DNA of 41,001 nt from Kiritimatiellia bacterium (lineage in GTDB: Bacteria; Verrucomicrobiota; Kiritimatiellia; RFP12; UBA3636). The stretch is taken from the NCBI GenBank assembly GCA_017424105.1, contig JAFPBK010000027.1, positions 1 through 41,001 of the forward strand, read 5' to 3'. The notes below the pieces were generated by a model that was given only the letters and a program-made list of their open reading frames with translations, was not told the DNA's origin and searched no databases. Of this stretch, positions 5,101 through 41,001 are shown one piece after another; the first letter of the stretch is position 1, and the number at the start of each line of letters is the position of its first letter. Made by a program: the position numbers and the translations under genes.

Positions 5101-5108
5101 TAGAGTAG

Positions 5109-6411: not shown

Positions 6412-8166
6412 TTACTTGCTTGGTGCGATGCAACCTAGCTTGCAAAGCTGATCGCATAAGCCACAGCCATTACATGCTGTTGGATTGATGCTTGGGCGAC
6501 CATTTGCCCCAACCTCAATCGCAGGACAACCACAACGCAAGCAAAGCTTGCAGTTGACGCAACGCTCGTCATCAATTACACGTGCAGGGCCCATTGGCTT
6601 TCTTACATGCAATGGACATGGTGCACGAGAAATAATGAGCGATGGCTCGTCTGCCTCTAGCTCTTCTTTAATTATAGCGATTGTTTCAGCCTGATTGTAA
6701 GGATTGCATACACGAATGCGCTCCATACCACATGCACGAGCAATTGCCTCAATTGAAGCTGATTTTGTAGGCTCGCCCATCAGAGTGGTGCCTGTGCCTG
6801 GATGCTCCTGATGTCCTGTCATTGCTGTAATACGATTATCTACAACAATCAATGTGCTATTGCCTTTGTTGTAAACTACATCAAGCAAACCTGTGATACC
6901 TGAATGGAAGAATGTTGAGTCACCAACAATACCAACGACCTTCTTTTGTTCGCCAGCCTTTTGCATACCATGTGCAATTGTAAAACCAGCACCCATGCAG
7001 AGAATTGTGTCGGTACGATTCAATGGAGGGAATACACCTAAACTGTAGCAGCCAATATCACCACTCACAATTACATCAAACTTTGTGAGTGCTAAGAAAA
7101 GTCCACGATGTGGACAGCCTGCACAAAGCATTGGTGGACGTGCTGGCAAATCACCTGCCTCCTCAACAATGCTTGGAAGCTGTGGCAGGGTCTGCTCAGG
7201 ATAAAGCTGTTGCTTGATTGCATAAAGCTTTGCTGGTGTCAGCTCACCACAACGTGGCACAAGTCCCTTGCCTTCACAAGCAATGCCAAGTGACTTGATG
7301 TGCTCCTCCATAATTGGATCGCCCTCTTCTATCACTACAAGACGCTTTACCTTAGCAGCAAAGCTCTTGAATAGTTCATCAGGGAATGGCCAGCCAAAGC
7401 CTATCTTCAAAATACTTGCCTCTGGGAATATCTCAATACAATGAGCTGCTGTTACACCATGAGAAATAATGCCTAGCTCAGAGCCATTTTCAATGATCTC
7501 ATTCATTGGTGATGTGCATGCCTCTGCTGCTTGGGCGACCATACGCTCCTCAACCTTTACGCGGAGCTTGCGTCCCCAAATTGGCAGTGGAACAAATTGC
7601 TGCACATTGCTCTTGAAGCATGTGGCATTACGCTCACGTGGTTCACGCTCCTCTACTAATGAGCGAGAGTGGCTTACGCAAGTTGTAGTACGCAAAATTA
7701 CTGGGCAACCATATTTCTCTGAAAGCTCAAAGCCCTTGATAACAAAGTCGCGTGCCTCAGCTGCATTTGCTGGCTCAAGCACTGGGATTTTAGCTAAGCG
7801 CGCATAGTGTCGCGTATCCTGCTCTGTTTGAGATGAATCCTGACCAGGATCATCAGCCACAACAATTACCATGCCACCAACTACACCGATGTAGGAAAGT
7901 GTCATCAATGGGTCTGCAGCAACGTTAAGTCCAACAAGCTTCATTGTTGTGATTGTGCGAGCACCTGCGATAGAAGCACCTGCAGCTGCCTCAAGGGCAA
8001 CCTTTTCATTTGGCGACCACTCGCAATATACACCTTGCTTTGAGTACTGAACGAGATTTTCCAAAATCTCTGTTGATGGTGTGCCAGGATAACCGAATGT
8101 TGCAGTTACACCACCCTCAAATGCACCACGTGCAATTGCTTCATTTCCAGAATAAAGTTTTTTCAT
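6412..8166 (-). CDS. iorA: Indolepyruvate:ferredoxin oxidoreductase, alpha subunit
   Basis: The N-terminus is GNEAIARGAFEGGV..GYPGTPSTEI. There is a TPP-binding region. The C-terminus has two 4Fe-4S motifs, CVNCKLCLRCGCP and CNGCGLCDQLC. Confidence 0.9.
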   Translation of the reverse strand: MKKLYSGNEAIARGAFEGGVTATFGYPGTPSTEILENLVQYSKQGVYCEWSPNEKVALEAAAGASIAGARTITTMKLVGLNVAADPLMTLSYIGVVGGMVIVVADDPGQDSSQTEQDTRHYARLAKIPVLEPANAAEARDFVIKGFELSEKYGCPVILRTTTCVSHSRSLVEEREPRERNATCFKSNVQQFVPLPIWGRKLRVKVEERMVAQAAEACTSPMNEIIENGSELGIISHGVTAAHCIEIFPEASILKIGFGWPFPDELFKSFAAKVKRLVVIEEGDPIMEEHIKSLGIACEGKGLVPRCGELTPAKLYAIKQQLYPEQTLPQLPSIVEEAGDLPARPPMLCAGCPHRGLFLALTKFDVIVSGDIGCYSLGVFPPLNRTDTILCMGAGFTIAHGMQKAGEQKKVVGIVGDSTFFHSGITGLLDVVYNKGNSTLIVVDNRITAMTGHQEHPGTGTTLMGEPTKSASIEAIARACGMERIRVCNPYNQAETIAIIKEELEADEPSLIISRAPCPLHVRKPMGPARVIDDERCVNCKLCLRCGCPAIEVGANGRPSINPTACNGCGLCDQLCKLGCIAPSK

Positions 8167-26354: not shown

Positions 26355-27413
26355 CTATTCTTTATCTAATTGATTTTCCTTAGAAGAACTTTCTTTTGCT
26401 ACATCCTTTATCTCTTGAGCAAGCTCCTCTTTTCGTAATGAATCAAATGATGACTTAACTGCCATTGTTAAAGGGACTGCTAAAAGCATACCAACTGGGC
26501 CCAAAGTCCATCCCCAAACAAGTACAGCAATTAAAACAACAACAGGAGAAATACCAAATCCTTTACCCATAAATTTTGGCTCAAGAATATTTCCTAATAC
26601 TTGATTTACCACAAGATACAAGAAAATAACATATACAACAATTCCTGAATCTCCGCTATTTATGGATGCAAGTATAACTGCTGGAATTGTAGCGAGAATA
26701 GAACCAAACACTGGCACAAAATTAAGAATAAAAGCAAGAAGTCCTAATGCTTCTGCTGATGGCACTCCTAATAATTTTAAGCCTAGATAAATAAAGAAAC
26801 CAGTAGCTGCACTAATAATTGTTTTTATTCCCATATAATGGCGAATATCCAGTACCATTCGAAGCATTCTATCGTAAACATCTTTATCAACCCAACGAAT
26901 GCTACGAACCTTTCTAGGCAAGGAATTTAACTCGCAAAGAATAAAAGAAACTACGATTAGCACTACAATAATTTGTTGTAGCATTGACACCATTAGAGGT
27001 GTTACGCCTTTAACTACAGGCATTATTTGATCCAAACCAAATGTAGCAATATAATCAATAACCTTTTCTGGAACATAAACATCATGATTACTTAGCCAAG
27101 TTGTAACATCACGTACAATTTGAATAAATTGAGTATAGTAATCAGGTACTTTATCTGCAAATTTCTGAATTGTTTGTGTAATAAAGCTAATGATACCAAA
27201 AAGCGTAAAGCATACCATTGATACGATAAGAGTAATTAAGGCCAACCAATTTGGGAAGCGTAATCTTCTCAACCAATAGTAGATAGGAGAAATAATAACA
27301 GCGATAAAAATTATTATCAGGATTTGAGTTATTAATGCAGAGGCATATTTCAGACCAAGCATAATAATTGCGATAGAAGCAATTTTTAGAAGCCAATCAT
27401 TAATTTTAGACAT
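26355..27413 (-). CDS. AI-2E family transporter (PerM/YhhT-like)
   Basis: It has 7-8 TM helices, and the conserved C-terminal core is GLLAFILNFVP..G...A.IP. Confidence 0.8.
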   Translation of the reverse strand: MSKINDWLLKIASIAIIMLGLKYASALITQILIIIFIAVIISPIYYWLRRLRFPNWLALITLIVSMVCFTLFGIISFITQTIQKFADKVPDYYTQFIQIVRDVTTWLSNHDVYVPEKVIDYIATFGLDQIMPVVKGVTPLMVSMLQQIIVVLIVVSFILCELNSLPRKVRSIRWVDKDVYDRMLRMVLDIRHYMGIKTIISAATGFFIYLGLKLLGVPSAEALGLLAFILNFVPVFGSILATIPAVILASINSGDSGIVVYVIFLYLVVNQVLGNILEPKFMGKGFGISPVVVLIAVLVWGWTLGPVGMLLAVPLTMAVKSSFDSLRKEELAQEIKDVAKESSSKENQLDKE

Positions 27414-27530
27414 AGATTCTCCTGGACAAATTACATTGGAGCAAAATATTTGTTTATACCATTAGATTTATATGATTATATATTATCATATATTCAGAGA
27501 TAACACAACAAAACAACGATTTTGTATAAA

Positions 27531-27570
27531 TAAAAAAAATGCTCTGCCTCGCTTGTGCGAACAGAGCATT
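27531..27570 (-). terminator. Intrinsic terminator after rpmA
   Basis: On the minus strand, AATGCTCTG-N15-CAGAGCATT is followed by T8. Confidence 0.7.
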
Positions 27571-27595
27571 TTTCTAATTTAAAGTAAGCTAAAGC

Positions 27596-27841
27596 TTATT
27601 CAGCTGCGTTTTCGATAACGCTAACTACACGGCCTTCTTTCTCGAACTTAACTACACCAGCAACAACTGTGAATAGTGTATCGTCACGACCACGCTCTAC
27701 ATTCTTACCAGGGTGGAACTTTGTACCACGCTGACGAACTAGAACCTCACCAGCCTTAACTGTCTGACCGCCATAACGCTTTACGCCAAGTCTCTGGCCT
27801 GGGCTGTTACGTCCATTAATACCTGTCTTTTTACGTGCCAT
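27596..27841 (-). CDS. rpmA: 50S ribosomal protein L27
   Basis: The sequence is [38 protein letters not shown]. Confidence 0.95.
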
Positions 27842-27869
27842 TTTGAAACTCCGTTTCTTTTATAAATGA

Positions 27870-28184
27870 TTAAGCAATTGACTTAACCGTAGCACGTGTC
27901 ATTTCCTGACGATGGCCAACCTTGCGATGATAGCCCTTGCGGCGCTTCTTCTTAAAGTTAACAACCTTCTTTCCACGATAGTGCTCGACTACGTTAAGAA
28001 CTACAACAGCACCATCAACTAGTGGTGTGCCTACCTTCAACTGGGCGCCATCAGAAACAGCCAATACTGTCTTGATTTCAACGTCCTTACCAGCCTCTTC
28101 CTTGAGGCGTTCAATTTCTATTGTCTGACCAACTTCAACGCGATACTGCTTTCCGCCGGTTTCTATTACTGCATATGCTTCCAT
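27870..28184 (-). CDS. rplU: 50S ribosomal protein L21
   Basis: The sequence is MEAYAVIETGGKQYRVEVGQ......KKRRKGYHRKVGHRQ. Confidence 0.95.
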   Translation of the reverse strand: MEAYAVIETGGKQYRVEVGQTIEIERLKEEAGKDVEIKTVLAVSDGAQLKVGTPLVDGAVVVLNVVEHYRGKKVVNFKKKRRKGYHRKVGHRQEMTRATVKSIA

Positions 28185-28225
28185 GAGGGTCTTCCTCTAC
28201 TTTTCAAGTGGTTAATGAGCGCATA

Positions 28226-28254
28226 ATTTAACAAATTTTGATAGGCTTTGTCAA
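28226..28254 (-). promoter_or_regulatory. Candidate sigma70 promoter of rplU-rpmA
   Basis: On the minus strand: TTGACA (28254-28249), 17 nt, TTAAAT (28231-28226). Confidence 0.5.
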
Positions 28255-28325
28255 CACCTAATTTAAATTTATCAAATTTTTACTCTGACATTTATGTGAC
28301 AGGTATAAATCACCCATCACTACTC

Positions 28326-30317
28326 CTATAGATAGTTTTTAATTTTTTCGACTACAGCCTCTGCCGTAAAGCCAAACTTTTGCTCTAGCACCTTATATGG
28401 AGCTGAAGCACCAAAATGATCTATTGTTATTGCTAAGCCGGCCTTACCAATATATCTTTCCCAACCAAAGGATGAAGCAGCCTCAATTACGATGCGCTTT
28501 GTACAAGCCTTTGGAAGAACTGATTCTTGATAAGCTTCGCTTTGCTTTTCAAACAATTCCCATGATGGCATGTTGACCACACGGACATTTTTGCCTACTG
28601 ACTTGAGCTGCTCAAAAGCCTTTAGGGCTAACTGGACTTCGGAACCAGTTGCAATGATTATTGCATCAGGCTGCTTACCTTCCTCTGTCTGAGCAAGTGT
28701 GTAAGCACCCTTTTCGAGCATTTCTGGAGCTGGATAGATGGAGCGATCTAATGGCTCAAGATTTTGGCGTGTTACAAGGATTGCTGTTGGCCCCGTAGTG
28801 TTACGAAGTGCAGCAAGCCATGCCTGTGCTGTCTCTGTAGGATCAGCTGGGCGGATTACCACAGTATTAGGCATTGCCCTGAGGGAAGACAATTGCTCAA
28901 TTGGCTCGTGGGTCGCACCATCCTCACCTACATAGAATGAGTCGTGTGAAAATAGATAAATTGCAGGTAGCTTAGAAATTGCAGCTACGCGCATTGCTGG
29001 GCGAACATAGTCAGCGAATACAAAGAAGGTTGCGCTATAAACATAGAAGCCGCCATAAGCAATCATTCCATTTTGAATTGCTGCCATAGCTAGCTCGCGC
29101 ACACCAAAGTGTATGTTGCGTCCAGAAAAATCATTTGCTGAAATTGCAGAAGAGGAATCAATCCATGTTTTATTACTTGGAGCAAGGTCAGCTGAACCAC
29201 CAATAAATGTTGGTATTGCTGCTGCCAATGCTTGGATTACATTACCTGAAGAAGCACGTGTAGCTACTGCCTTTTCAAATGTTGGTAAAGCAATCTGCTC
29301 TGGAATTGAATAATTGCCCTTTAGAGCATCAATCAAATACTGCTCTTCTGCTGTAAATGTTTGTGAATCAAGATTGCGCTCCCATGCCTTTGCTGCACGT
29401 GTAATTGCAACTGCCTTACGGCGTGTAAGTGCATAAGCCTCCTCTGACACCCAAAAATCCTCTGCTGGGATACCAAGTGCTTGCTTAGTAAGAGCTACTT
29501 CCTCTGCTCCAAGTGGCTCACCATGTACCTTTGGAGAGCCTGCCTTATTTGGGCTGCCTTTACCAATTGTTGTTTTGCAAACAATCAGCACTGGCTTATC
29601 TGCTACCTTGCGAGCGCGACGAATTGTGGAATTAATCTGCTCGTAATCATGGCCATCAATTTGGAATACGCGCCAGCCATAAGCCTTAAAGCGAGCTGCT
29701 GTATCATCTGTAAAGGTGCAATCTGTATTGCCTTCAATTGAAATTTTGTTACTATCGTAGAATGCGATCAGCTTATTGAGCTTTAGGTTTCCTGCAAGAG
29801 AGGCTGCCTCGTGGCTGATGCCTTCCATCATATCACCATCGCCCATGAAAACATATGTGTAGTTGTCAATTATTGTGCGATCTGAATTATTTAGGCGAGC
29901 AGCTGCCATGCGCTCTGAAATTGCCAAACCTACAGCATTTGCAAAACCTTGGCCTAATGGACCTGTTGTTACTTCAACACCATCTGTCTCTCCTAGCTCT
30001 GGGTGACCTGGTGTAACTGAGCCATACTGACGGAAATTCTTTAAATCATCCAATGTTACTTTGTAACCAAAAAGATGAAGCAAGCTATAAAGCATTGCAG
30101 AACCATGACCACCGGAAAGAACAAAGCGATCACGATTTACCCACTTACTTACTTTTGGTGTAACATTCAAATACTGCAACCAAAGTACAGAAGCAACATC
30201 TGCCATACCCAGTGGCAAACCAGGATGGCCAGAATTTGCCTTCTGAATTGCATCAATTGATAAGCCACGAACTATATTGGCTATCGTTTTAAAATCATTT
30301 GAGTTAAATCTTGCCAT
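28326..30317 (-). CDS. tkt: Transketolase
   Basis: SGHPG, GPLGQG, the GDG.MMEG TPP motif, and a length of 663 aa. Confidence 0.95.
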   Translation of the reverse strand: MARFNSNDFKTIANIVRGLSIDAIQKANSGHPGLPLGMADVASVLWLQYLNVTPKVSKWVNRDRFVLSGGHGSAMLYSLLHLFGYKVTLDDLKNFRQYGSVTPGHPELGETDGVEVTTGPLGQGFANAVGLAISERMAAARLNNSDRTIIDNYTYVFMGDGDMMEGISHEAASLAGNLKLNKLIAFYDSNKISIEGNTDCTFTDDTAARFKAYGWRVFQIDGHDYEQINSTIRRARKVADKPVLIVCKTTIGKGSPNKAGSPKVHGEPLGAEEVALTKQALGIPAEDFWVSEEAYALTRRKAVAITRAAKAWERNLDSQTFTAEEQYLIDALKGNYSIPEQIALPTFEKAVATRASSGNVIQALAAAIPTFIGGSADLAPSNKTWIDSSSAISANDFSGRNIHFGVRELAMAAIQNGMIAYGGFYVYSATFFVFADYVRPAMRVAAISKLPAIYLFSHDSFYVGEDGATHEPIEQLSSLRAMPNTVVIRPADPTETAQAWLAALRNTTGPTAILVTRQNLEPLDRSIYPAPEMLEKGAYTLAQTEEGKQPDAIIIATGSEVQLALKAFEQLKSVGKNVRVVNMPSWELFEKQSEAYQESVLPKACTKRIVIEAASSFGWERYIGKAGLAITIDHFGASAPYKVLEQKFGFTAEAVVEKIKNYL

Positions 30318-30364
30318 TTCAAAACCCTTTTTCTTATAGTGTATTGAAGTTAAACAGATTAAAA

Positions 30365-31861
30365 TTACTTAATTTTGTACCCAGCCTGTTGGCGGCGCTG
30401 ACGGCGCTTTTTCATCGCTGACATTGAAGTCTCACCTGTAGGAACAGGCTTACGACTTGCTGGCTTCTTTGCAGCAGACTTTTGCTTTGAAGAATTCTTT
30501 TGCTGTTCAGCCTCTGCCTTGCTTCCACTGCGTGCACGGAATTGAATGTACACGATTACGCCTTCAAGACCAAACTTCTCACGCAAGCTGTTCACCAAAT
30601 AAGACTTGTAGCTGGCAGGTACACGCTTTGGATCATTTACAAATACGCGAATACCAATTGGGTTCTTACCTACCTGAACGCAATAGTACATACGCATACG
30701 CTTACCATCCTTAGAAGGAGGAGGTGTGCGATTGTATGCCTCCTCCATTACGCGGTTAAGAATACCGGTAGGAAGAGTAGCCATGCTCTGTGAAGCAACA
30801 TAGTCAATTGCACCAATTACGCTGTTAACATTAAAGCCTGATTTTGCAGACATAAATACAACTGGGCAGTATGCCATAAATGGCAGACCCTGCCACAAGG
30901 TTTGAGAATATTCCTTCTCTTTAACTGTGGACAGATCCCATTTATTAACTACAACTACGCAGCCCTTACCCTGCTCTACAATTTCGCTGGCAAGCTGCTT
31001 ATCAAGCAAACCAACACCGCGCTCAACATCAATCATGAGCACAACAATATCAGCGCGCTCAATGCTCTCCTGCATACGATAGCGGCTATAACGCTCAACA
31101 GCTGTATCTACGCGTGCTTCACGGCGTGAACCTGCAGTATCAATCAATGTATAGCGGCGACCCTCCACAGCAAATGGAACATCAATACTGTCACGGGTGG
31201 TACCAGGAATATCAGAAACTAGCACGCGCTCTGCATGCAAAAGCTTATTAACAAAAGAAGATTTACCAGCATTTGGTCGGCCAACAATTGCTACGCAAAG
31301 ACCATCATCCTTCTTTGCTTCTTCCTCAGAAACAACAGGAAAATCCTTAGTAAGATTATCCATCAGCTTTGCAAAGCCACGACCATGCAATGCTGAGATT
31401 GGATATACAGGGAAGCCTAGCTGAGTAAAATCAGCATCGCCCAAATCAAATTCTTCTGTATCAGCTTTATTTGCTGCTACGTAAACTGTAATTCCTGAGC
31501 GATAAAGTATGCCTGCAACCTCCTTATCCATAGGAGTAATACCCTGCTGGATATCTACAACAAAAATTGCTATTTTTGCATCTTTAAGAGCAGCCTCTGC
31601 CTGAACACGAATACCAGCATCAATTTTATCATGAATTGTTTCATTATCAACATTCATGATACCTCCGGTATCGATCAGGGTAAAGCGCTTATCCTGCCAT
31701 GAAACCTCGCGCATTAGGCGGTCACGTGTAACACCTGCCTCGCAATGCACGATAGCAATGCGCTTACCTGCTATGCGATTAAACACAGCAGATTTACCCA
31801 CATTAGGGCGTCCTACGATTGCCACGACTGGCAGTTCTTTTACTTGATTTTCTTCTGTCAT
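30365..31861 (-). CDS. der: Ribosome-biogenesis GTPase Der (EngA) with a Lys/Arg-rich C-terminal tail
   Basis: Two G domains (GRPNVGKS and GRPNAGKS, each with DTGG/DTAG and NK.D) plus a KH-like domain. Confidence 0.9.
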   Translation of the reverse strand: MTEENQVKELPVVAIVGRPNVGKSAVFNRIAGKRIAIVHCEAGVTRDRLMREVSWQDKRFTLIDTGGIMNVDNETIHDKIDAGIRVQAEAALKDAKIAIFVVDIQQGITPMDKEVAGILYRSGITVYVAANKADTEEFDLGDADFTQLGFPVYPISALHGRGFAKLMDNLTKDFPVVSEEEAKKDDGLCVAIVGRPNAGKSSFVNKLLHAERVLVSDIPGTTRDSIDVPFAVEGRRYTLIDTAGSRREARVDTAVERYSRYRMQESIERADIVVLMIDVERGVGLLDKQLASEIVEQGKGCVVVVNKWDLSTVKEKEYSQTLWQGLPFMAYCPVVFMSAKSGFNVNSVIGAIDYVASQSMATLPTGILNRVMEEAYNRTPPPSKDGKRMRMYYCVQVGKNPIGIRVFVNDPKRVPASYKSYLVNSLREKFGLEGVIVYIQFRARSGSKAEAEQQKNSSKQKSAAKKPASRKPVPTGETSMSAMKKRRQRRQQAGYKIK

Positions 31862-31913
31862 AAATTCTTTAGTTTTTTAGCTGGCTATACCAGCAATACC
31901 GCCTGCTATAAAA

Positions 31914-33224
31914 TTAAGCAGTCAGAGTTGCAGCTGCTTTGCGAAGGCGAGCAACTGTACGCTCCTTACCTACAAGCACTAGTAACTCAAACAAGCCAGG
32001 TCCCTCTGTAATACCGGACACTGCCACGCGAATTGGATGAACCACAGGGCCCATACCACCTAGTTCCTCGCTCTTTGCACGAACGATTGCTTCTGTAGCT
32101 TCCTCTGTGAAATCCTCAAGAGCCTCAAAGCGATTTGCCATTTCCTCCAATAGCTCGCGTACACCAGGCTGCTTCAAGCGCTTTGTTACTGCTGCCTCAT
32201 CAAAAGGATATTCCTCTGTGAAGAAGTAAATGCAGTTACCAGGAAGCTCTGTATAAACCTTTGTACGTGGTTGAACTGGGCCAATCACTGCATCAAGAGA
32301 GCCATTTAGAGGCTGCTCTGGAAGACCTGCTGCCTTTAGGCGAGCAACTAGCTCTGCCTTGAACTGCTCCTTTGGCTGCTTTGCAATATATTCGCCATTC
32401 ATCCAGCGAAGCTTCTTCATATCAAAACGAGATGGGCTTGACTTACAACGCTCCAAAGAGAATGCCTCAATCATTTCCTCACGAGTCATTACCTCACGAT
32501 CATCGCCAGGAGCCCAACCAAGCAGAAGCAAGAAATTAAATAGTGTCTCAGGAAGATAGCCCTGCTCTCTGAATTCACCAACAAATGCGGCACCATCGCG
32601 CTTTGAATATGGCTTACCCATATTGTTTACAATCATTGGCAAGTGAGCATACTGAGGTGGTGTATAGCCTAATGCCTTAAATAGCTCAATGTGTTTGAAG
32701 GTATTTTCCACATGGTCATCACCACGAATTACCAAAGTAATGTTTTGAAGCATATCGTCAACAACATTTGCCAAGTGGAATACAGGAGAACCATCAGAAC
32801 GAACGATAACAAAATCCTGAGTATCTTCTGCCTTTTTCTTCATGCGACCCTTAACAAGGTCCTCAAACTCAATGCGGCCTTCCTTTGGCATACGAAATAC
32901 AATACAGCCAGCCTTAGGACCTTCTGTCTCTTTGTATGCATAGCCTTCAGCAAGAAGCTTTTCTGCTGCTTCAAGGTGCTTCTGAACATTATGAGTCTGA
33001 TAAACTACTGGCTCATCAAAGTCCAGACCTAGCCACTCCATGCACTCAAGAAGTGTCTGAATAGCCTCTGGAGTTGAACGCTCTAAGTCAGTATCTTCTA
33101 CGCGTAGAAGGAATTTGCCGCCTACATGGCGAGCATATAGCCAGTTAAAAATTGCTGCTCTGATATTACCAATATGCACCTTACCAGTTGGGGATGGTGC
33201 GAAACGAACGCGTACCTGTTCCAT
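31914..33224 (-). CDS. gltX: Glutamate-tRNA ligase
   Basis: RFAPSPTGKVHIGNIR (HIGH motif) and KPYSKRDG (KMSKS equivalent). At 436 aa it is on the short side for GluRS. Confidence 0.9.
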   Translation of the reverse strand: MEQVRVRFAPSPTGKVHIGNIRAAIFNWLYARHVGGKFLLRVEDTDLERSTPEAIQTLLECMEWLGLDFDEPVVYQTHNVQKHLEAAEKLLAEGYAYKETEGPKAGCIVFRMPKEGRIEFEDLVKGRMKKKAEDTQDFVIVRSDGSPVFHLANVVDDMLQNITLVIRGDDHVENTFKHIELFKALGYTPPQYAHLPMIVNNMGKPYSKRDGAAFVGEFREQGYLPETLFNFLLLLGWAPGDDREVMTREEMIEAFSLERCKSSPSRFDMKKLRWMNGEYIAKQPKEQFKAELVARLKAAGLPEQPLNGSLDAVIGPVQPRTKVYTELPGNCIYFFTEEYPFDEAAVTKRLKQPGVRELLEEMANRFEALEDFTEEATEAIVRAKSEELGGMGPVVHPIRVAVSGITEGPGLFELLVLVGKERTVARLRKAAATLTA

Positions 33225-33448
33225 AAAAATTCTCTTTTATTTATAAAATTTACATTTTGCCACTAAAAATCAAGTGCTTAATTATACAAAATGCCGTATT
33301 TTTTTTCAACAGAAATCACACAACGGCACATCTAAAACAGCGAAACTAAATAGGCAATGCAATTTGCATGACGCATTAGATGCACGTGTCGCCAATATTC
33401 GCACTTCTCGCCACCACGCAAGCCCTGCGTCCTCCGCGTCCCTGCGGG

Positions 33449-33562
33449 AAAAAATCACAACTCACTCATCGCCCTCAATCGTTGCTCAAACATATAATCA
33501 TTGAAATCCATATCATACGAATATGTGCAACCTATACGAACTATCATATTCTTTTCTTTCTC
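33449..33562. repeat. Direct repeat DR1 (~115 bp), left boundary of the DUF262 islet
   Basis: About 93% identical by eye to 38133-38249. The core is ATCGCCCTCAATCGTTGCTCAAACATATAATCATTRAAATCCATATCATACGAATATGTGCAACCTATACGAACTATC. Confidence 0.85.
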
Positions 33563-33597
33563 TTTTTGCGTAACTGCTTATCCTAAAGCAAATTCCA

Positions 33598-33638
33598 TGC
33601 CAAAAGAAAAACAGGCTGAAAACGTATCGTCTTCAGCC
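33598..33638 (-). terminator. Intrinsic terminator downstream of the DUF262 operon
   Basis: On the minus strand, GGCTGAA-N11-TTCAGCC is followed by TGTTTTTCTTTTGG. A paralogous module lies at 38695-38735. Confidence 0.6.
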
Positions 33639-33941
33639 CGTTCACTGGTCAGATTTTTATCAACTGTTCAGATTTTAACCTCCCGCAGAGACGCAGAGGC
33701 GCAGAGATTTTGAGAACATTACCTTTTACAACAGGCAAATATCACAATCCACAATCTCTCCGCCGCCTGCGGCACGATCCCACAGACGACCGAGGTGTAG
33801 ATATCGCGATTCGAGAGGAAGGTGGTCATAAATCCGCAGTCTCATAGCTTTCTTTCAATTCCGCTTTCATACATGAAATTAAGTCATCGTCAAAACCTCA
33901 TATTCAGAATTGTGAGACCTTGCATAAACGCACATCTATTT

Positions 33942-36281
33942 CTAAAGAGCCATTCCAATTTTAGACAAAACATTTTCAGCGATTAATCCACACTCCTCCT
34001 CGTCATCCGTCCAAAGGGAGTATTTCCCATCATTCATTGCCTTCAAACGATACGTATGGCCGTTCTTGGAGAAATCAATGCTATTGGTTTCAGGCTCTGG
34101 CTGAATTGAATCATGGAAACATCTAGTGCCTTCCGCTACTTTCTCATAAACATAAGCAAGCAACAACTCATAGCTGCGACTGTTCTCTGTCTTGCCCCGC
34201 GCAAGAAAGTAGTGCCCGGAAGCGCTTGAAACAACTCCCCAATAGGCGTAGTCGCGCATAAAAAGTTGTGGCATGGAAATCATAAATCTACGCCAATCGG
34301 TGACGGCTGATTTTCCTTCCACTATAACGGCATCACAAACCGCTATTATATTAATCTCCTCTTGCTTCTCCCTGCGCCAAAAATCAATAAAGGCCTTAAT
34401 CCCAGGTGCGTAACATCCGTCTATCTCATCTCTGAGATACCTCTTCCAAGAATAGAATCTTTCCGCAGGCGGGACAATGCCGAAAGATTTATGTTTTCCG
34501 AATCGATAGTCGGAAATCGTCAACATAGCCGCATAAAATTTGCATCTCTGCGATTCTTCAATTCCATCCGAGAAAAGAGCTGTAATGCCACGTAGGCATT
34601 TTGTGTACGCCGAGAATTCCGCTTTGTTACACACCCCATCATTTTTTGACCAGCAAAGGAGGCATCCAATTTGTCCGCGAAGATATGCGTCGGTTTCAGC
34701 CTCCCTCATCAAATTTGCCCACTCTGTATCTGCACAGCGAAGTTTGGCCTTAGCAGATTCCTCTTCGATTCTCGCACGCTCAAAGCCTGGCACATTCTTG
34801 ATTGTGCCCAGAAACTCGTCCATTCTCATTTCGCATTTTTCGAATTCCTCCATCCAGCGGTCAATCTGTGTCATTGCCGTGATAACCTTGCCGACATCGT
34901 CAAACCTGTCGTTGCAATTTTCAATTATCGTACAGTTCCTGAGAAATCTTCCCCAAGACTTGAAATCTTCGAGCCTGACGTTTTCGCCATCGGCATTGCC
35001 GTTGACAGCCATTGTACGCAACGGAAATTTTCTCAGAAATGCCAACACACCATAAAATCCGAGTCTTTCGGGATAAGTGAATGAATCCTGGAGGTAAAGA
35101 TCAAGAAGGTTTCTAGAACCTGTTGAATCCCAACCGTATTCAGGATCAAGATATTTCGTGAAATCAAACCATTGGCGATCCTGCTCTACCTCGGTGAAAC
35201 CTATCAACGACTGCATGTCGTTGTACAGTTGCAGAAAATCAATGTACAAATATCTCGCAGCCGTGGAATGGCGCGCACGCCACGCCTCTGCCGTGTAGCG
35301 TGGAACTAACAACTCTAGCGTTCGCTCATCGCGAGAATTGGCAACCTCTGCGAGTTGCGGGCACACATTCTGTCTTGCAAACTGGATTGAAATCAGTCGC
35401 AGCAAAAGACGCATATATCGATCTTCAACTTCGGCGACATCCACCTCGCCGTTTTCACGGATACCCCGCTGTCCCCAGAAGTAATCAATCCAATCGTTGT
35501 CGACAATCCGCTTCCATTCTTCTTCAAATGCGGCAGTTCCTTTTTCATCGGCACCCATAGCATTTTGCTGGCGCAATTCCTCTTCGAGCGTTGACTTCAA
35601 GATATCGAAAGCCGAAAGTTGCAGCCCTCTCGCATTCATTTTCACGTAGAGCTCGTCGCCTTGGGAAAACTTATTGAGATCGAGCCAGTGAAACGTTATG
35701 CAGGAAAGTGCATCATAGCGACTGGTGTCGTAAGTATAGCCGGATTCCTTCAGCAAAGCAAACACTTCATCGATAACCACCAGCATTGAAATAACGGTAG
35801 CGTCTTTCCGCCAAGCCCACTTGAACCAGTCTTTCCTGCATAGTACTTCCGAGACCTGAAGGCTCTTCGCATTTGCCTCATGGTGCAATACGCATGCAAC
35901 ATGCTTAACAATTTCATTGCAGAACTCTTCCGCAGAGATGCGCGTTTCATACGTGAATCTCGATAATCCATCCAAACCGATTAAATCTTTCTTATCGGCA
36001 GGCGAAAATATCCAGTGTAGTATGAATAGCGTTGTGAGACGTTGCTGGCCATCTAGAGGCTCGAACGCGTCATTGCGGTCGTAGCCATAGATGAAATCGA
36101 GATGCAGCGGACGCTGTCCGTTGGAATATACCGAATCGAGAAGATCGTTAAGAAACGCCCTGCGGATGTCACGGATCTTCGGTTTCCTACGCCCCTCGGC
36201 ATAATCGCGTTGTATCTGCGGTATCCGGATCTTACTCGTCTTAAGCAAATCGAGAAACGTCATATTGATCTGCTCGCTCAC
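33942..36281 (-). CDS. DUF262 (ParB/Srx-fold NTPase-like) protein with a long unassigned C-terminal region
   Basis: IRIPQIQRDYAEGR, LDGQQRLTTLFILHW and YVKMNARGLQLSAFDILKS. No DUF1524 His-Me motif was found. The GTG start overlaps the upstream stop (GTGA) and lies 6 nt after a GGAGGTG. Confidence 0.85.
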   Translation of the reverse strand: MSEQINMTFLDLLKTSKIRIPQIQRDYAEGRRKPKIRDIRRAFLNDLLDSVYSNGQRPLHLDFIYGYDRNDAFEPLDGQQRLTTLFILHWIFSPADKKDLIGLDGLSRFTYETRISAEEFCNEIVKHVACVLHHEANAKSLQVSEVLCRKDWFKWAWRKDATVISMLVVIDEVFALLKESGYTYDTSRYDALSCITFHWLDLNKFSQGDELYVKMNARGLQLSAFDILKSTLEEELRQQNAMGADEKGTAAFEEEWKRIVDNDWIDYFWGQRGIRENGEVDVAEVEDRYMRLLLRLISIQFARQNVCPQLAEVANSRDERTLELLVPRYTAEAWRARHSTAARYLYIDFLQLYNDMQSLIGFTEVEQDRQWFDFTKYLDPEYGWDSTGSRNLLDLYLQDSFTYPERLGFYGVLAFLRKFPLRTMAVNGNADGENVRLEDFKSWGRFLRNCTIIENCNDRFDDVGKVITAMTQIDRWMEEFEKCEMRMDEFLGTIKNVPGFERARIEEESAKAKLRCADTEWANLMREAETDAYLRGQIGCLLCWSKNDGVCNKAEFSAYTKCLRGITALFSDGIEESQRCKFYAAMLTISDYRFGKHKSFGIVPPAERFYSWKRYLRDEIDGCYAPGIKAFIDFWRREKQEEINIIAVCDAVIVEGKSAVTDWRRFMISMPQLFMRDYAYWGVVSSASGHYFLARGKTENSRSYELLLAYVYEKVAEGTRCFHDSIQPEPETNSIDFSKNGHTYRLKAMNDGKYSLWTDDEEECGLIAENVLSKIGMAL

Positions 36282-38101
36282 TTTGCACCTCCATTCAAAT
36301 AAATGTTGAGCCGCTTATGCAGTTCTTTCTTATAGCACATCATGTCGCTTGTATGCCAACGAACGGCATCCATGGCGGATGCAGTGCCCCCCGAAAAGTA
36401 TTTGAGAAAGACATTTTTCGTCCCTAGAGGAACGAAAAGTCCATTACGGTCCCGTTCGATTACGCAGTCTCTTTTGTACGGAAATGGCGCATTGCCATAT
36501 CCGCGATTCGTACCGCTGTCAAGAAGGACGAGATTGCCAAGCGAATCTTTGTCGGACGCATCTTGGTCGAAACCAGTTCCACGCGAATAGTATTCGGAAA
36601 CCTTTCCATATAAATCGAGGAAAGCATCCCCGGAATCCCTCCGATCGCGTGTCATGGCTTCAATCAGTGACTGAGATTCCAAAAAGAGTTCTTTAGCGTC
36701 TTTCGATGATTCCGCTGATAGCGATTGTGCAACGCATTCAAGCCATTTTATCTTATCATCGATATCCTGCATTGTATTTGTCGTCTGAGAATCAACATGT
36801 TCGATATCCCAATTCTCCTCCCTGTAAGCTGCGAAGTCGAAGCGAAGCCCAGAAGTGCGATAAAGATCTACATTGAACAGGAGAAGTATTTTGCGGACGC
36901 TGTTGGAATCTTCGTATGTGACCGTTTCTATATCTGCCACATGTTTCAAGACGCCTGATATCAGACCTCGCAAAACACAATAGGTTTGTTCCTCGTCCCA
37001 ATCATCGGCATCCTTTTTGGCTTTTTCAATCGCCGAGTGAATATCCGATGGACTTTTACCATTTGCAACAAGGTATCCGACATAGTTATATATGTTAGTG
37101 TCTTCATACCAGTGGACAAGCATATCAAAAATACCCTTGACGCGATTCCACAATTCCAGAAACGCTCCCCCACCGTCAGCTTCGTCAAAGCATTGCTGAA
37201 ACCATCTGTAAGATCCATCGGTACCAGGTTTCTCGCCTGACACAAAATCAAAGAGAAGGTCCATCCGAGTTAGGGGATCTGCGGACTTGTCGCTTATGAA
37301 ACACCAAAATCCGTCATCAGAGAATCGACACTCCATAGCATCCCAAATCATAGAAATCTTCAAACTCTCGGACTCCCAACGTTCTTCAGTCTTCTTGCAG
37401 GCAAGTATAAATAGAGCCTTGATAAGTTCAGACGAAGTAAGTCCTATTTTTCCCTTATTCAGGCGGTTAAAAACTTTTATCGCCTCAACTCTTTCATCCG
37501 ATTCAGCAACAACGGTTTTATCAAAGGGAGGAACTACATACCATATAAACTGCACTTTCCGATCGCTGTCACTATCAAACAAGGCACATTCAAACTGCCC
37601 AAATGCCTTCGGATATTTTTCTGAAACAACCTCCATCCACTCCCTGATCAAATTGTTGGCTTTATGAAGATGATAGCTGTCTATGTCATTTTGAGGATCA
37701 AGGCGGTCAAGATCAAGATTCTTGCGTGCTGCATATTTTATCACATAAAGCCTATTCATGACCCTTTCCGCCTTCTTTGGCGATAGATATGGAATGAGAT
37801 TTTTCAATACAAGCAGCATTGTCGTCAATCGCTGCTGCCCATCCAACACTTCCCATTCTCCATTTTCCAAATTTCGAACCACAACAGGCTGTAAAAAATA
37901 TGACACGGCTGCCGTGGCACGGACAAAGGACAACATGTCATCAAGAAGGTCCTTTACTTGTTTGTCACCCCACCGATAGCCACGCTGAAATGATGGTATC
38001 AGAAAACGATGGTTTCCGTCCAAGAATTCCGCAACAGCCTTCGGTCTTAATGTATCAACCTGGCGCCCCCCCGCCATTTCAACTGTTCTTTCTTCTGTCA
38101 T
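36278..38101 (-). CDS. GmrSD-family type IV restriction endonuclease-like protein (DUF262 + DUF1524)
   Basis: The N-terminus has LIPSFQRGYRWGDKQV and LDGQQRLTTMLLVL. The C-terminus has WDIEHVDSQT and LGNLVLLDSGTNRGYGN, a His-Me finger of DUF1524 type. ATG 38101 behind AGGAG is preferred over the track's TTG at 38107. Confidence 0.85.
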   Translation of the reverse strand: MTEERTVEMAGGRQVDTLRPKAVAEFLDGNHRFLIPSFQRGYRWGDKQVKDLLDDMLSFVRATAAVSYFLQPVVVRNLENGEWEVLDGQQRLTTMLLVLKNLIPYLSPKKAERVMNRLYVIKYAARKNLDLDRLDPQNDIDSYHLHKANNLIREWMEVVSEKYPKAFGQFECALFDSDSDRKVQFIWYVVPPFDKTVVAESDERVEAIKVFNRLNKGKIGLTSSELIKALFILACKKTEERWESESLKISMIWDAMECRFSDDGFWCFISDKSADPLTRMDLLFDFVSGEKPGTDGSYRWFQQCFDEADGGGAFLELWNRVKGIFDMLVHWYEDTNIYNYVGYLVANGKSPSDIHSAIEKAKKDADDWDEEQTYCVLRGLISGVLKHVADIETVTYEDSNSVRKILLLFNVDLYRTSGLRFDFAAYREENWDIEHVDSQTTNTMQDIDDKIKWLECVAQSLSAESSKDAKELFLESQSLIEAMTRDRRDSGDAFLDLYGKVSEYYSRGTGFDQDASDKDSLGNLVLLDSGTNRGYGNAPFPYKRDCVIERDRNGLFVPLGTKNVFLKYFSGGTASAMDAVRWHTSDMMCYKKELHKRLNIYLNGGAK

Positions 38102-38132
38102 TTCCAAAATCTCCTTTTTTTATTCTCTACAA

Positions 38133-38249
38133 GAGAAAATCACAACACCCCCATCGCCCTCAATCGTTGCTCAAACATATAATCATTAAAATCCATATCA
38201 TACGAATATGTGCAACCTATACGAACTATCCATATTCTTTCATTTCTTT
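38133..38249. repeat. Direct repeat DR2, right boundary of the DUF262 islet
   Basis: It is the partner of 33449-33562 and ends 26-32 nt upstream of the GmrSD-like start. Confidence 0.85.
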
Positions 38250-38367
38250 ATAATGCGATTATATCAAAAATCCACATTATTATCAACAGATAATCGTAGC
38301 TCCAATCCCCATGGAGCGTTTTTTGCCATCGCCGGTCAGAATCCAATTCGCACAGAGGTGCTCTTTT

Positions 38368-38643
38368 TCAACGAAGTCTCCTTTTCGAGTCCACCTCCAT
38401 TCTGAAGAAGGCGAAGTCCATCTCCTTTGACGAATGATGCGGACTTGTCATGCATTCGCGCATCCGCGCGGCAAGGCCGGGATACCGCATTTGAACTTCG
38501 TGGTAGATGCGCTCTATCGTCGAGCCAACACGTTCGCACTGCCCCGCCTCGTCGATTCCAATGCGCAGCATCTCGTTCCTGAAAAGTCGCAGCTCCTGTT
38601 TGAAAAGCCAACCATCACTCATGTTGTTCTTGAATCTTTGCAT
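38368..38643 (-). CDS. Hypothetical 91-aa ORF, possibly a gene remnant
   Basis: The first ~60 aa look protein-like (LFKQELRLFRNEMLRIGIDEAGQCERVGSTIERIYHEV). The region is G+C-richer. No family was recognised. Two other frames are also open here. Confidence 0.25.
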   Translation of the reverse strand: MQRFKNNMSDGWLFKQELRLFRNEMLRIGIDEAGQCERVGSTIERIYHEVQMRYPGLAARMRECMTSPHHSSKEMDFAFFRMEVDSKRRLR

Positions 38644-38694
38644 CTGGGTTTTCTCCTATTTCTGTTCCACATGCCTATCTATCAGCAACATCCG

Positions 38695-38735
38695 TGCCAA
38701 AACAAAAACAGGCTGAAAACAAAGGTTTTCAGCCT
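38695..38735 (-). terminator. Intrinsic terminator (paralogue of 33598-33638)
   Basis: On the minus strand, AGGCTGAAAAC-cttt-GTTTTCAGCCT is followed by GTTTTTGTTTTGG. Confidence 0.6.
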
Positions 38736-38984
38736 ACGCGCCGTTCAATTTTTTACCACATGTTCAATTTTATACCACAAAGACAAGATATCTCCGTTTT
38801 AGAAGTGTTAAATTAGAAGAGCAAGCAAAAAGTTACCTTAAGATTATAGGATTTTACAATTATTGTTGAGTATTTGCGTTCTCTCGGTAATTATTTGGTA
38901 GCTACACTGCTTATACCTGAAATAAGCCTAGACCAAGCAGACATAAATCGCTTTACAAACTTTCTCTCTAAGCTTAATTTTTCA

Positions 38985-39108
38985 AAATGTACACACGCTG
39001 GTCCATTCTCACTCTTACATGGATTATTGCTGTTGTGTAGGAGCACACAAAAACAACAATCGTAAAACTATTTTGCCCGCAGCTTAAGCATGCGGGCAAA
39101 AAAAATGG
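38985..39108. repeat. Direct repeat DR'1 (~124 bp), distal boundary of the Fic islet
   Basis: About 98% identical to 40596-40720, with two substitutions and one A-run length difference. Confidence 0.9.
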
Positions 39109-39156
39109 CAGATAACCCCTGTTCCTATACAATGCACCACTTTTGAGGGGCATGGT

Positions 39157-39201
39157 GCACCCATTCCCTTAATAGCCCTATGCTTTTAAGGGAATGGGTG
39201 C
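39157..39201. other. Perfect 16-bp-stem hairpin just downstream of fic
   Basis: GCACCCATTCCCTTAA-N13-TTAAGGGAATGGGTGC. It contains the same AAGGGAA/TTCCCTT motif found upstream of fic. No U-run follows it. Confidence 0.6.
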
Positions 39202-39218
39202 AATTTTAAGGGGATTTA

Positions 39219-40265
39219 TCACTTGAGCCTGAAATAGGTGGTATTTTTGCCGTTGCCCTCACGCGCAAGATCCCCCTCGGCAACGAGCTTACGAAGTGCG
39301 CCCTCTACCGAGCTGATACTGAGGGACGGACAAAGCTCCATGACGTCCTGCTTCTTGAAGCGACCGACCTTATTCATCGTGGCGCGTCTCACCATTTCAA
39401 GAGAGGAAAGCTTGGTTTCCACAAGTGCAAAGCGGTCTTCAAAATCACGGTACGCGGAAAGGATCGTACCGAGCAGATATTTGATGAACGGTACGGTATC
39501 CGCTTCTCCCTCGTGCCAGCCTTGCTGCGACTGCCCTAGGGCATCGTAATACAGATCTTTGTTCTTTGCTATCTTGGCTTCCAAGGAGATATACTTCCCA
39601 ACGTAGAATCCGTTTCGGTAAAGGAGGAGCGTGGTGAGCAGACGGCTCATTCTGCCGTTGCCATCATTGAACGGATGGATGCAAAGAAAATCGTGTATAA
39701 AGGTAGGAATGGCAATGAGAGGCTCAAGCTCCATATTGCCGATCACACGGTTATATTCGTTACAAATGGCTTCAAGTGCCTCTGGTGTCTCAAAGGGGTC
39801 GAGAGGTGTAAACAGCGTTTCAGTATGTCCGTCGGGATAGGTTGCGCTGATATAATTCTGTACGCTCTTAGTTCTGCCTGCCACGGGATTGTTCATATGG
39901 CTGTAGAGGATCTTGTGAAGATGAAGGATATAGTTCGGTGTCAAGGGGATGGCATCAAAGCTTTCGTGAATGATATTCAAAACGTCTCGGTACCCGGCAA
40001 TCTCCTGCTCTTCGCGGTTTCTCGGTGTGGACTTCTCACCCATCAGCTGACGAATACGGGTGCTCGTGGTCACGATGCCCTCAATGGCGTTGGACGCTTC
40101 GGTGCTTTGTACCTTTGCAATCTCAACAAGCTTTTCAAGCTCCTCAGGGCGTTGCTTCAAATATAATTCTTGTTTTCCGGCTTCCTTGTAAATTGCGGCA
40201 ATCAAGCCGAGCAACTCGGAATCCCATTTGTTTTCACTGATTTTCGTATAATTAAAGGTTCTCAT
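39219..40265 (-). CDS. fic: Fic family protein (class II, N-terminal inhibitory motif, C-terminal wHTH-like region)
   Basis: The Fic motif is HPFNDGNGRMSRLL. The Fic_N-type inhibitory motif is SNAIEG (S-x-x-x-E-G). The start was set to ATG 40265, 5 nt after GGAGGTG. Confidence 0.9.
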   Translation of the reverse strand: MRTFNYTKISENKWDSELLGLIAAIYKEAGKQELYLKQRPEELEKLVEIAKVQSTEASNAIEGIVTTSTRIRQLMGEKSTPRNREEQEIAGYRDVLNIIHESFDAIPLTPNYILHLHKILYSHMNNPVAGRTKSVQNYISATYPDGHTETLFTPLDPFETPEALEAICNEYNRVIGNMELEPLIAIPTFIHDFLCIHPFNDGNGRMSRLLTTLLLYRNGFYVGKYISLEAKIAKNKDLYYDALGQSQQGWHEGEADTVPFIKYLLGTILSAYRDFEDRFALVETKLSSLEMVRRATMNKVGRFKKQDVMELCPSLSISSVEGALRKLVAEGDLAREGNGKNTTYFRLK

Positions 40266-40283
40266 TTTATCACCTCCAAACAA

Positions 40284-40376
40284 TTCCCTTAAATTATAGC
40301 ACAAATCAAGGGGATTGTCAACATCTCAAGGGAACATTCCCTTATTATTTTACTCAAATTAAGGGAATTTATTCAT
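40284..40376. promoter_or_regulatory. Cluster of AAGGGRA/TYCCCTT half-sites upstream of fic, including a palindrome
   Basis: TTCCCTT at 40284, AAGGGGA at 40308, the palindrome AAGGGAA-CA-TTCCCTT at 40328-40343, and AAGGGAA at 40370. Confidence 0.4.
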
Positions 40377-40595
40377 TTTTGAGGAAATAATACGATAGTA
40401 TCATATTTTAGCGTTAAGAGGAATTCTCTACAAAGGACAATGGGGACAGAACAGACAAACGGCAAGGCTGCCCCTGACGTCTGTGGTATAAGGTTGTTTA
40501 TTGCCGTTCCAATTCGGTGAAGACCTCAATGGCAATCCGCATCCCAAGCCGACATCGGTCGCTTCATAAGCCTGCTCTCAAGAATAGATTTTACC

Positions 40596-40720
40596 AAATG
40601 TACACATGCTGGTCCATTCTCACTCTTACATGGATTATTGCTGTTGTGTAAGAGCACACAAAAACAACAATCGTAAAACTATTTTGCCCGCAGCTTAAGC
40701 ATGCGGGCAAAAAAAAATGG
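40596..40720. repeat. Direct repeat DR'2, abutting the tRNA-Pro 3' end
   Basis: It is the partner of 38985-39108. Its last 3 nt are the complement of the tRNA's CCA. Confidence 0.9.
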
Positions 40721-40794
40721 TCGGAGAGGCGGGATTCGAACCCACGACAGCCAGTTCCCAAAACTGGTGCGCTACCAGACTGCGCTACTCTCCG
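40718..40794 (-). tRNA. tRNA-Pro (anticodon TGG)
   Basis: Manual cloverleaf: CGGAGAG/CTCTCCG acceptor stem, GCGC/GCGC D stem, CCAGT-TTTGGGA-ACTGG anticodon arm, GTGGG-TTCGAAT-CCCGC T arm, discriminator A and an encoded CCA. Length is 77 nt. Confidence 0.9.
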
Positions 40795-40819
40795 ACTTGT
40801 TTCGTAAAATATGCGCATA

Positions 40820-40848
40820 ATGATACAGTATTCTGAACCAAAATGCAA
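40820..40848 (-). promoter_or_regulatory. Candidate sigma70 promoter of tRNA-Pro
   Basis: On the minus strand: TTGCAT (40848-40843), 17 nt, TATCAT (40825-40820), about 25 nt upstream of the mature 5' end. Confidence 0.45.
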
Positions 40849-41001
40849 GCACTTTTTTAATTTTTTTTAATTTAATTTTTTCTTGTGATTTGCGAAAGTA
40901 AATGCACCAGTTTTGGTGCATTTAGTCGCACGACAGGGATATGAGAGACCAAAATTTCTATAAATTATGGTTTTTATAAAAAAACACAAAGTTTTCATAG
41001 A

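Follow-up and report, generated by a model that had tools for sequence, protein, structure and literature searches.

Results and discussion

Two overlapping DUF262 genes between gltX and tRNA-Pro

The window, a stretch of 41,001 nt from a gut Kiritimatiellae bacterium (contig JAFPBK010000027.1), includes an islet between gltX and a tRNA-Pro gene in which two adjacent genes encode proteins with a DUF262 domain. They are referred to here as gene 1 (grwA-like) and gene 2 (grwB-like), after the two genes of the GrwAB restriction system of Vibrio cholerae. An earlier reading of the DNA that used no database searches (the sequence-only reading) had pointed to the pair as a candidate modification-dependent restriction or defence module. 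It gave no strand for the genes, which are both encoded on the minus strand.

Gene 1 (36278..38101 (-)) encodes a protein of 607 amino acids (aa) from an ATG at 38101. The longest open reading frame (ORF), 36278-38107(-), begins with a TTG at 38107 and encodes 609 aa; the ATG is likely to be the true start and the 607-aa protein the true product, because a GGAG sequence is found 9 nt upstream of the ATG and the nearest homologues are 607 aa in length. Gene 2 (33942..36281 (-)) encodes 779 aa from a GTG start. At the coupling junction (36278..36292 (-)), the gene 2 GTG (36281) overlaps the TGA stop of gene 1 (36278-36280) as GTGA, and a GGAGGTG is located at 36286-36292, 6 nt before the GTG, as described in the sequence-only reading. 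Among relatives of the pair, the commonest distance between the two ORFs is also -4 nt (15/78), followed by -8, -11 and -1, these counts being derived from an ORF caller that takes the longest ORF. The distribution is consistent with a predicted translational coupling throughout the family.

The gene 1 product

Pfam identified a DUF262 domain (GmrSD_N, ParB-like NTPase; PF03235) in both proteins and the DUF1524 nuclease domain (GmrSD_C; PF07510) in gene 1 only, in agreement with the domains recognised in the sequence-only reading. All of the motifs quoted there (FQRGYRW, DGQQRLTT, DIEHVDSQT, GNLVLLDSGTNRGYGN, IPQIQRDYAEGR and KMNARG) are present in the translations. In BrxU and SspE, which share this architecture, DUF262 serves as an NTP-dependent sensor or switch and DUF1524 as the nuclease.

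The DUF262 domain of gene 1 (37409..38032 (-); aa 26-233, E 2.3e-32) includes the QR (FQRGYRW), DGQQR (37829-37843) and FNRLN motifs. The arginine of DGQQR is R91 in the numbering of the 607-aa protein and R93 in that of the 609-aa protein. Columns Q39, R40, D87, G88, Q89, Q90, R91, F211, N212 and N215 are invariant in the gene 1 family. The match to PF07510 covers aa 514-547 with an E-value of 5e-5 and a score of 23.6 bits, the Pfam cutoff being 23. It falls within a His-Me finger (36506..36799 (-)) with H435, N523 and N532 (607-aa numbering), in which the histidine is separated from the first asparagine by 88 residues and the two asparagines are separated by 9. The second distance is 9 throughout the gene 1 family, and the first ranges from 66 to 126. 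The DGQQR arginine, the histidine and both asparagines are retained in 72/74 family members, and the two exceptions are truncated ORFs.

An AlphaFold2 model of the gene 1 product (mean predicted local distance difference test score, pLDDT, 82.8), built from a 55-sequence alignment, includes a strand at 431-435 that ends at H435, a second strand at 524-528 and a helix at 529-535, the last two being near N523 and N532. A helical insertion of ~85 residues separates strand 1 and strand 2 of the finger. In a Foldseek search with this model, matches that span the full length were obtained to DndI (9jfl; E 4e-8) and SspE (E 8e-6 and 3e-5). The gene 1 product is a predicted GmrSD-type enzyme that consists of a DUF262 NTPase/sensor domain, a helical linker and a His-Me (DUF1524) nuclease.

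The gene 2 product

The DUF262 domain of gene 2 (35586..36251 (-); aa 11-232, PF03235/GmrSD_N, E 8.5e-20) carries the motifs IQRDYAEGR, DGQQR (with R81) and KMNARG. In alignments of the gene 2 family, DGQQR including R81 is invariant. GmrSD_N is the only Pfam family detected in gene 2, and no nuclease motif was found in the protein. The DUF262 domain is also the sole region common to the gene 1 and gene 2 families (hhalign probability 97.5%, E 7.6e-12). Descent of the gene 2 C-terminus from a degenerate gene 1 linker or DUF1524 domain was considered and rejected, as the corresponding hhalign probabilities were at most 1.2%.

The remaining ~550 aa (33945..35585 (-); aa 233-779) form the C-terminal region. 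In an AlphaFold2 model built from 96 sequences (pLDDT 90.3; predicted template modelling score, pTM, 0.80), helices make up residues 240-430 and 435-680 of the part beyond DUF262, and a beta-rich domain follows at 683-779. Relatives of gene 2 are full-length proteins of ~750-850 aa that are conserved along their whole length. Conserved residues of the C-terminal region include W443, R448/N449, E507/E508/K511, Y533/G536/Q537, K613/R617 and W663; W443, E508, K511, W521 and F556 are invariant, and the motifs EExxK and YLxGQ are nearly so. A beta-beta-alpha-like element at aa 683-714 was examined as a possible nuclease and rejected because its 'GH' is not conserved.

No Pfam family was detected in the C-terminal region in 25/25 members examined. 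A fold search of the PDB with gene 2 returned SspE (E 2-3e-3) and BrxU (E 0.26), both through the N-terminal part only, and nothing for aa 233-779; a PDB sequence profile search with the C-terminus gave no match, and no solved structure of GrwAB was found in these fold and profile searches. Across the family, the GrwB C-terminus is a well-folded, conserved region for which the searches gave no known fold match. It might be a module of a new type that reads modified DNA or gates the nuclease, a suggestion that we make tentatively. If it holds, distant members such as the Kiritimatiellae pair would recognise modifications other than those recognised by GrwAB of V. cholerae.

In a search of BFVD, the best viral structural match of gene 2 was A0A8S5PWA5, an 847-aa DUF262 protein from Siphoviridae sp. 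ctg0K17 (E 6e-7). Its presence on a phage contig suggests that GrwB-like proteins can be phage- or prophage-borne.

Conservation of the gene pair

Each of the two proteins has >4,000 homologues in a metagenome protein collection. The Pfam E-values and the thousands of full-length homologues exclude a chance match. For gene 2, 80 loci from species-representative genomes were retrieved with the gene 2 family alignment, and their ORFs were scanned with hidden Markov models (HMMs) built from the gene 1 and gene 2 families. A gene 1 relative, with both DUF262 and the C-terminal nuclease region, was found immediately upstream and on the same strand in 77/80 loci. The remaining three are cut at the start of the contig or locus, so that the partner is present in 77/77 informative loci. 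In the reciprocal test with 80 loci seeded with the gene 1 family, a gene 2 relative was located immediately downstream in 78/80, or 78/79 informative loci. Of the other two, one is truncated at the end of its contig and the other (L236) has the A gene only.

Pairing of GrwA-like and GrwB-like genes is near-obligate. The co-occurrence check proposed with the sequence-only reading thus showed a conserved pairing of genes that are not independent, and supported its view that coupling to a nuclease-less DUF262 partner looks obligatory. Hosts of the pair belong to the Bacteroidota, Spirochaetota, Bacillota, Pseudomonadota, Campylobacterota, Verrucomicrobiota, Actinomycetota, Thermotogota, Elusimicrobiota and Patescibacteria. 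The survey adds to the published description of GrwAB that, in at least ten phyla, GrwA and GrwB are paired in this order almost without exception.

Given that proteins with DUF262 are numerous and varied, and that the chromosome around the islet is housekeeping in nature, it could be asked whether two independent DUF262 genes, or genes for a non-defence ParB-like function, have come to be neighbours by chance. This is hardly credible given the order, strand and junction conserved in >150 loci from many phyla, the transfer of both genes as one cassette (see below), and the experimental demonstration that an orthologous pair is a defence system (PMC12137116).

In L236, a Bacteroidales metagenome-assembled genome (MAG) from water buffalo rumen, the GrwA-like gene lies at 4950-6662 (393 bits), and no GrwB-like gene was detectable in the 4.9 kb downstream of it. 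The GrwB partner could have been lost or replaced there. Two further loci carry the pair inside a type I restriction-modification (R-M) operon of the form hsdM-hsdS-A-B-hsdR (L081, 1403-8558; L082, 2522-15400), and the operon in L082 also carries an AbiEii module. The same embedding in type I R-M operons is known for TgvAB, an unrelated system considered below.

Relationship to GrwAB of Vibrio cholerae

GrwAB is a two-protein anti-phage restriction system described in V. cholerae (Adams et al., Nat Microbiol 2025; PMC12137116). GrwA, encoded first, consists of DUF262, a linker and DUF1524, and GrwB, encoded second, of DUF262 followed by unknown domains. Both proteins are needed, GrwA alone giving no protection, and the mutants R81A, H431A, N521A and N530A of GrwA and R86A of GrwB are inactive (PMC12137116). 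The system protects Escherichia coli against Queuovirinae, which have 7-deazaguanine, and Tevenvirinae, which have glycosylated hydroxymethylcytosine (hmC); phage escapers map to DpdA, and restriction proceeds without classical abortive infection (PMC12137116). Homologues were reported in ~1% of complete genomes (PMC12137116).

The window genes have the features by which GrwA and GrwB are defined. Gene 1 combines the DUF262 motifs with an alpha-helical linker and a DUF1524 domain that has a histidine and two asparagines, and gene 2 combines DUF262 with an intact DGQQR and an extended C-terminus that has no nuclease domain. As in V. cholerae, where the two ORFs share base 270358 (1-nt overlap), the genes are co-oriented and overlapping with A upstream of B. 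The A proteins are 603 aa in V. cholerae and 607 aa in the window, and the B proteins 821 and 779 aa. The QR, DGQQR and FxxxN motifs occur in both proteins of each pair, and the layout of the nuclease histidine and asparagines is 90/9 in V. cholerae GrwA and 88/9 in gene 1.

The V. cholerae A1552 proteins GrwA (603 aa) and GrwB (821 aa) were compared over the first 400 aa of each (preprint supplement). With the HMM of the gene 1 family, GrwA(1-400) reached 259 bits (E 3e-80) in an alignment to positions 8-417, which include the linker; an HMM of the linker only gave 65 bits. By BLASTP it is 31.5% identical to gene 1 over 352 aa (E 1.6e-48). For GrwB(1-400), the HMM of the gene 2 family gave 228 bits (E 6e-71) over positions 5-283, and BLASTP showed 34% identity to gene 2 over 322 aa (E 7.8e-42). 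Homology thus extends beyond DUF262, well beyond it for GrwA and over about 300 residues for GrwB. The V. cholerae residues R81 (GrwA) and R86 (GrwB) fall on the DGQQR motifs of the retrieved sequences. Proteins of Phocaeicola vulgatus and Helicobacter hepaticus that were MacSyFinder hits in the GrwAB paper scored 202-250 bits against the family HMMs.

A bridging orthologue was found in Aliiglaciecola lipolytica (L038), the pair of which is 68% and 66% identical to GrwA and GrwB, respectively, end-to-end over the available 400 aa. This locus was retrieved with the alignment of the window gene 2, and its B protein reached 311 bits with the HMM of the gene 2 family and 101 bits with an HMM restricted to the C-terminal region.

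The pair differs from that of V. cholerae in several respects. Its host is a gut Kiritimatiellae bacterium, not a Vibrio. The V. cholerae genes are adjacent to a Shedu gene (VcSduA) and a transposase gene, neither of which accompanies the window pair, which adjoins instead a SoFic-like gene. The middle and C-terminal parts of GrwB are divergent.

Taken together, the two genes very probably encode a two-protein restriction system of the modification-dependent (type IV) kind that belongs to the GrwAB family and is located on a small mobile cassette, within a strain-variable islet of the Kiritimatiellae chromosome. Several points weigh against this assignment. The window proteins share only 31-34% identity with the V. 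cholerae proteins that have been characterised, the comparison with them is confined to their first 400 residues, and the last ~420 aa of GrwB are bridged by the A. lipolytica locus only. Segment 290-400 of V. cholerae GrwB failed to align to the gene 2 HMM, and the C-terminal domains of GrwB are considered divergent for this reason. The Pfam match of gene 1 to GmrSD_C is marginal, as seen from the score given above, and the 2023 PADLOC library returned only N-terminal matches. The window pair itself is known from sequence alone, and both the hetero-oligomer and the part in sensing that are proposed below, the latter for the GrwB C-terminus, are inferred.

Homology to GrwAB supports the modification-dependent restriction or defence module put forward in the sequence-only reading. 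Its further statement that the arrangement could not be assigned to a named system is outdated and not supported, since the architecture is that of GrwAB (PMC12137116); the genes fall into a two-gene system already characterised, an outcome that the reading had itself named as counting against it. The arrangement is already known, and the window pair is a new, divergent member of the family. As such, the locus itself matters little, the defence family having been described and tested in 2025.

In the course of the comparison, a homology search for V. cholerae GrwB seeded with a Photobacterium sequence gave no V. cholerae-named match among the best 120. The R86-type loci L081 and L082 were considered as the V. 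cholerae LAT-1 locus and rejected, being the type I R-M-embedded relatives described above.

Comparison with other DUF262 systems

TgvAB (VC1767/VC1766), encoded in VPI-2 of V. cholerae, also consists of two DUF262 proteins produced from overlapping ORFs, only one of which has DUF1524; both are needed, and phages with glucosyl-hmC are targeted (PMC11411939, PMC11014532). In the light of this common plan, and of those relatives of the window pair that sit in type I R-M operons as TgvAB typically does, membership of the TgvAB family was assessed. The nuclease-less TgvA is encoded first (PMC11411939, PMC11014532), and this order is reversed in the window and in all relatives. TgvA and TgvB, compared over their first 400 aa (Table S3, PMC11411939), matched the family HMMs through DUF262 only, with 54-60 bits for gene 1 and 13-22 bits for gene 2, far below the 237-1163 bits of true family members. 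Outside DUF262, TgvA is unrelated to gene 2, and GrwB and TgvA were likewise reported to be distinct apart from this domain (PMC12137116). In TgvB, the catalytic H571 is 31 residues from the metal-binding N602, compared with 66-126 residues between the histidine and the first asparagine in the gene 1 family. Membership was therefore rejected, and a type I R-M-embedded GmrSD-like system of the TgvAB kind is a highly improbable description of the pair.

The single-chain GmrSD family (Eco94GmrSD, BrxU/HEC-05, HEC-06, SspE and DndI) shares its architecture and fold with gene 1. These enzymes act as homo-oligomers without a second DUF262 protein, whereas gene 1 has gene 2 as a partner. As gene 1 has the complete GmrSD architecture and fold, and as the relatives Eco94GmrSD, BrxU and HEC-06 work alone, gene 1 might itself be a self-sufficient enzyme of the GmrSD/BrxU/HEC-06 type. 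Gene 2 would then be an accessory that improves defence without being essential to it; it might, for example, act as a regulator, widen the specificity or serve as a decoy for phage inhibitors such as IPI*. The authors of the TgvAB and GrwAB studies themselves raise an anti-inhibitor role for the partner, and L236 has a GrwA-like gene with no GrwB-like gene. In V. cholerae, however, GrwA alone was not protective and R86A in GrwB abolished protection (PMC12137116). The partner, moreover, is present in 78/79 and 77/77 informative loci, where its start overlaps or abuts the first gene, and its DGQQR is invariant. A merely accessory gene 2 is thus unlikely. For TgvAB and GrwAB alike, the need of a complete GmrSD-type enzyme for a further DUF262 protein poses a mechanistic question. 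What interest remains in this need and in the GrwB C-terminus is at the level of the family and not specific to the locus.

The closest solved structures to gene 1 are those of DndI and SspE, gene 2 too has its best structural match in SspE, and the PADLOC SspE model matched with an E-value of 1e-13. A role in sensing backbone phosphorothioation, with a modification system of that type encoded elsewhere in the genome, was thus weighed. These matches reflect the shared GmrSD architecture. No sspABCD or dndBCDE genes are present in the 41 kb window, nor beside the cassette in the two other contigs that carry it (L083 and L084, see below), and only the two genes travel in the cassette. The orthologue studied in V. 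cholerae recognises modified bases, and its escapers map to DpdA (PMC12137116). We regard phosphorothioate sensing as improbable, and assignment of the pair to the GrwAB family is preferred.

Screening with PADLOC, which had been proposed as a check on the sequence-only reading, did not yield a call for the pair with the 2023 library. Matches to its HEC-06, Orf5 and SspE models are confined to the N-terminal part of gene 1, that to HEC-06 covering profile positions 11-278 of 569. No model for the pair was obtained from PADLOC 2023, NCBIfam or PHROGs, which gave only N-terminal matches at the level of DUF262 (including phrog_21165).

Proposed mode of action

By analogy with the characterised systems, translational coupling would yield both proteins in a fixed ratio, and these would assemble into a GrwA-GrwB hetero-oligomer. 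The two DUF262 domains would switch via nucleoside triphosphate (NTP) binding and hydrolysis as in BrxU and SspE, and the C-terminal domains of GrwB may supply or gate the recognition of modified DNA. The His-Me finger of GrwA would then cut or nick the invading DNA. For a member as distant as this one (31-34% identity), the modification recognised cannot be inferred from sequence.

Mobile cassette in a variable islet

A segment of 4.6 kb (33745..38346 (-)), which comprises both genes with ~240 nt upstream and ~200 nt downstream, recurs with 94% nucleotide identity in other metagenome contigs (L083 and L084). In those contigs the pair has other neighbours, DUF2201 and PLDc_2. The different neighbours and 94% identity identify the pair as a mobile two-gene cassette in a variable islet. 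The pair therefore moves as a self-contained unit of ~4.6 kb.

The transketolase encoded in the window shares 99% identity with its counterpart in L085, a Kiritimatiellae MAG from yak rectum, and this same-species contig matches window positions 27528-33315 at 97% and then diverges, L085 1-1376 being unrelated sequence at the islet site. As the match ends at 33315, L085 lacks the pair at this position. In two related Kiritimatiellia MAGs (L086 and L087), tkt-der-gltX is retained at 83-84% identity with other cargo upstream of gltX. The cargo comprises genes for an AAA_14/DUF4143 ATPase, an FGE-sulfatase-like protein and an unknown 427-aa protein in L086 (2117-6995), and for a KAP NTPase, a PDDEXK_3 protein, a sigma-54 activator and a RhuM/Fic protein in L087 (1-6996). 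The space from gltX to Fic/tRNA-Pro (window 33338-38847) is a hotspot of variation in related Kiritimatiellia, as judged by these genomes.

The match to L085 also stops at 27528, beside an AI-2E transporter gene (26355-27413). With ends at 27528 and 33315, the 5.8 kb tkt-der-gltX block therefore has variable DNA on both sides.

Repeats and candidate expression signals

The tRNA-Pro gene, the Fic gene and the flanking repeats that had been noted as the context of the pair are all present. Two sets of repeats flank the pair. One, of ~110-115 nt (33448-33561 / 38133-38247; 93% identical), has one copy in the 5' leader of gene 1 and one upstream of gltX. The other, of ~90 nt (33587-33677 / 38684-38772; 76% identical), has similar terminator-like hairpins (TTTTCAGCCTGTTTTT). 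Related copies of these dispersed intergenic repeats were found in contig L083 (5935-6216). The description of the locus as a repeat-bounded islet therefore stands in so far as the repeats exist. They are dispersed, with the upstream copy inside the transferred cassette and similar elements elsewhere in related contigs, and were rejected as demonstrable insertion boundaries. They could represent a shared terminator or leader module, or a substrate for recombination.

A candidate sigma-70-like promoter of the pair (38258..38286 (-); TTGATA-17-TATAAT with an extended -10 TG) sits within the transferred cassette. It is a match to the consensus only, and such sites are not more frequent in the region than expected from shuffled sequence. 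Downstream of gene 2 by ~300 nt there is an intrinsic-terminator-like hairpin with a T run (33609..33643 (-)), to which a hairpin at 38708-38737 (repeat D3), upstream of the cassette, is related.

Neighbouring genes

Between the GrwAB cassette and the Fic segment, and outside the transferred cassette, an ORF of 91 aa (38368-38643(-)), a possible gene, was found, which has no match to a Pfam family. The tRNA-Pro gene (40718-40794 (-)) was the only match in an Rfam scan of the window.

The SoFic-like Fic gene (39219-40304 (-); PADLOC SoFic, E 1.8e-37) is flanked by direct repeats of 173 nt at 38933-39105 and 40544-40716 that are ~90% identical, the second of which begins 2 nt past the 3' end of tRNA-Pro. 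No integrase gene was seen at this segment. Window positions 38848-40878 are 95% identical to L086 73-2116, compared with only 84% for the housekeeping genes, and this difference suggests that the tRNA-adjacent Fic cassette was exchanged recently.

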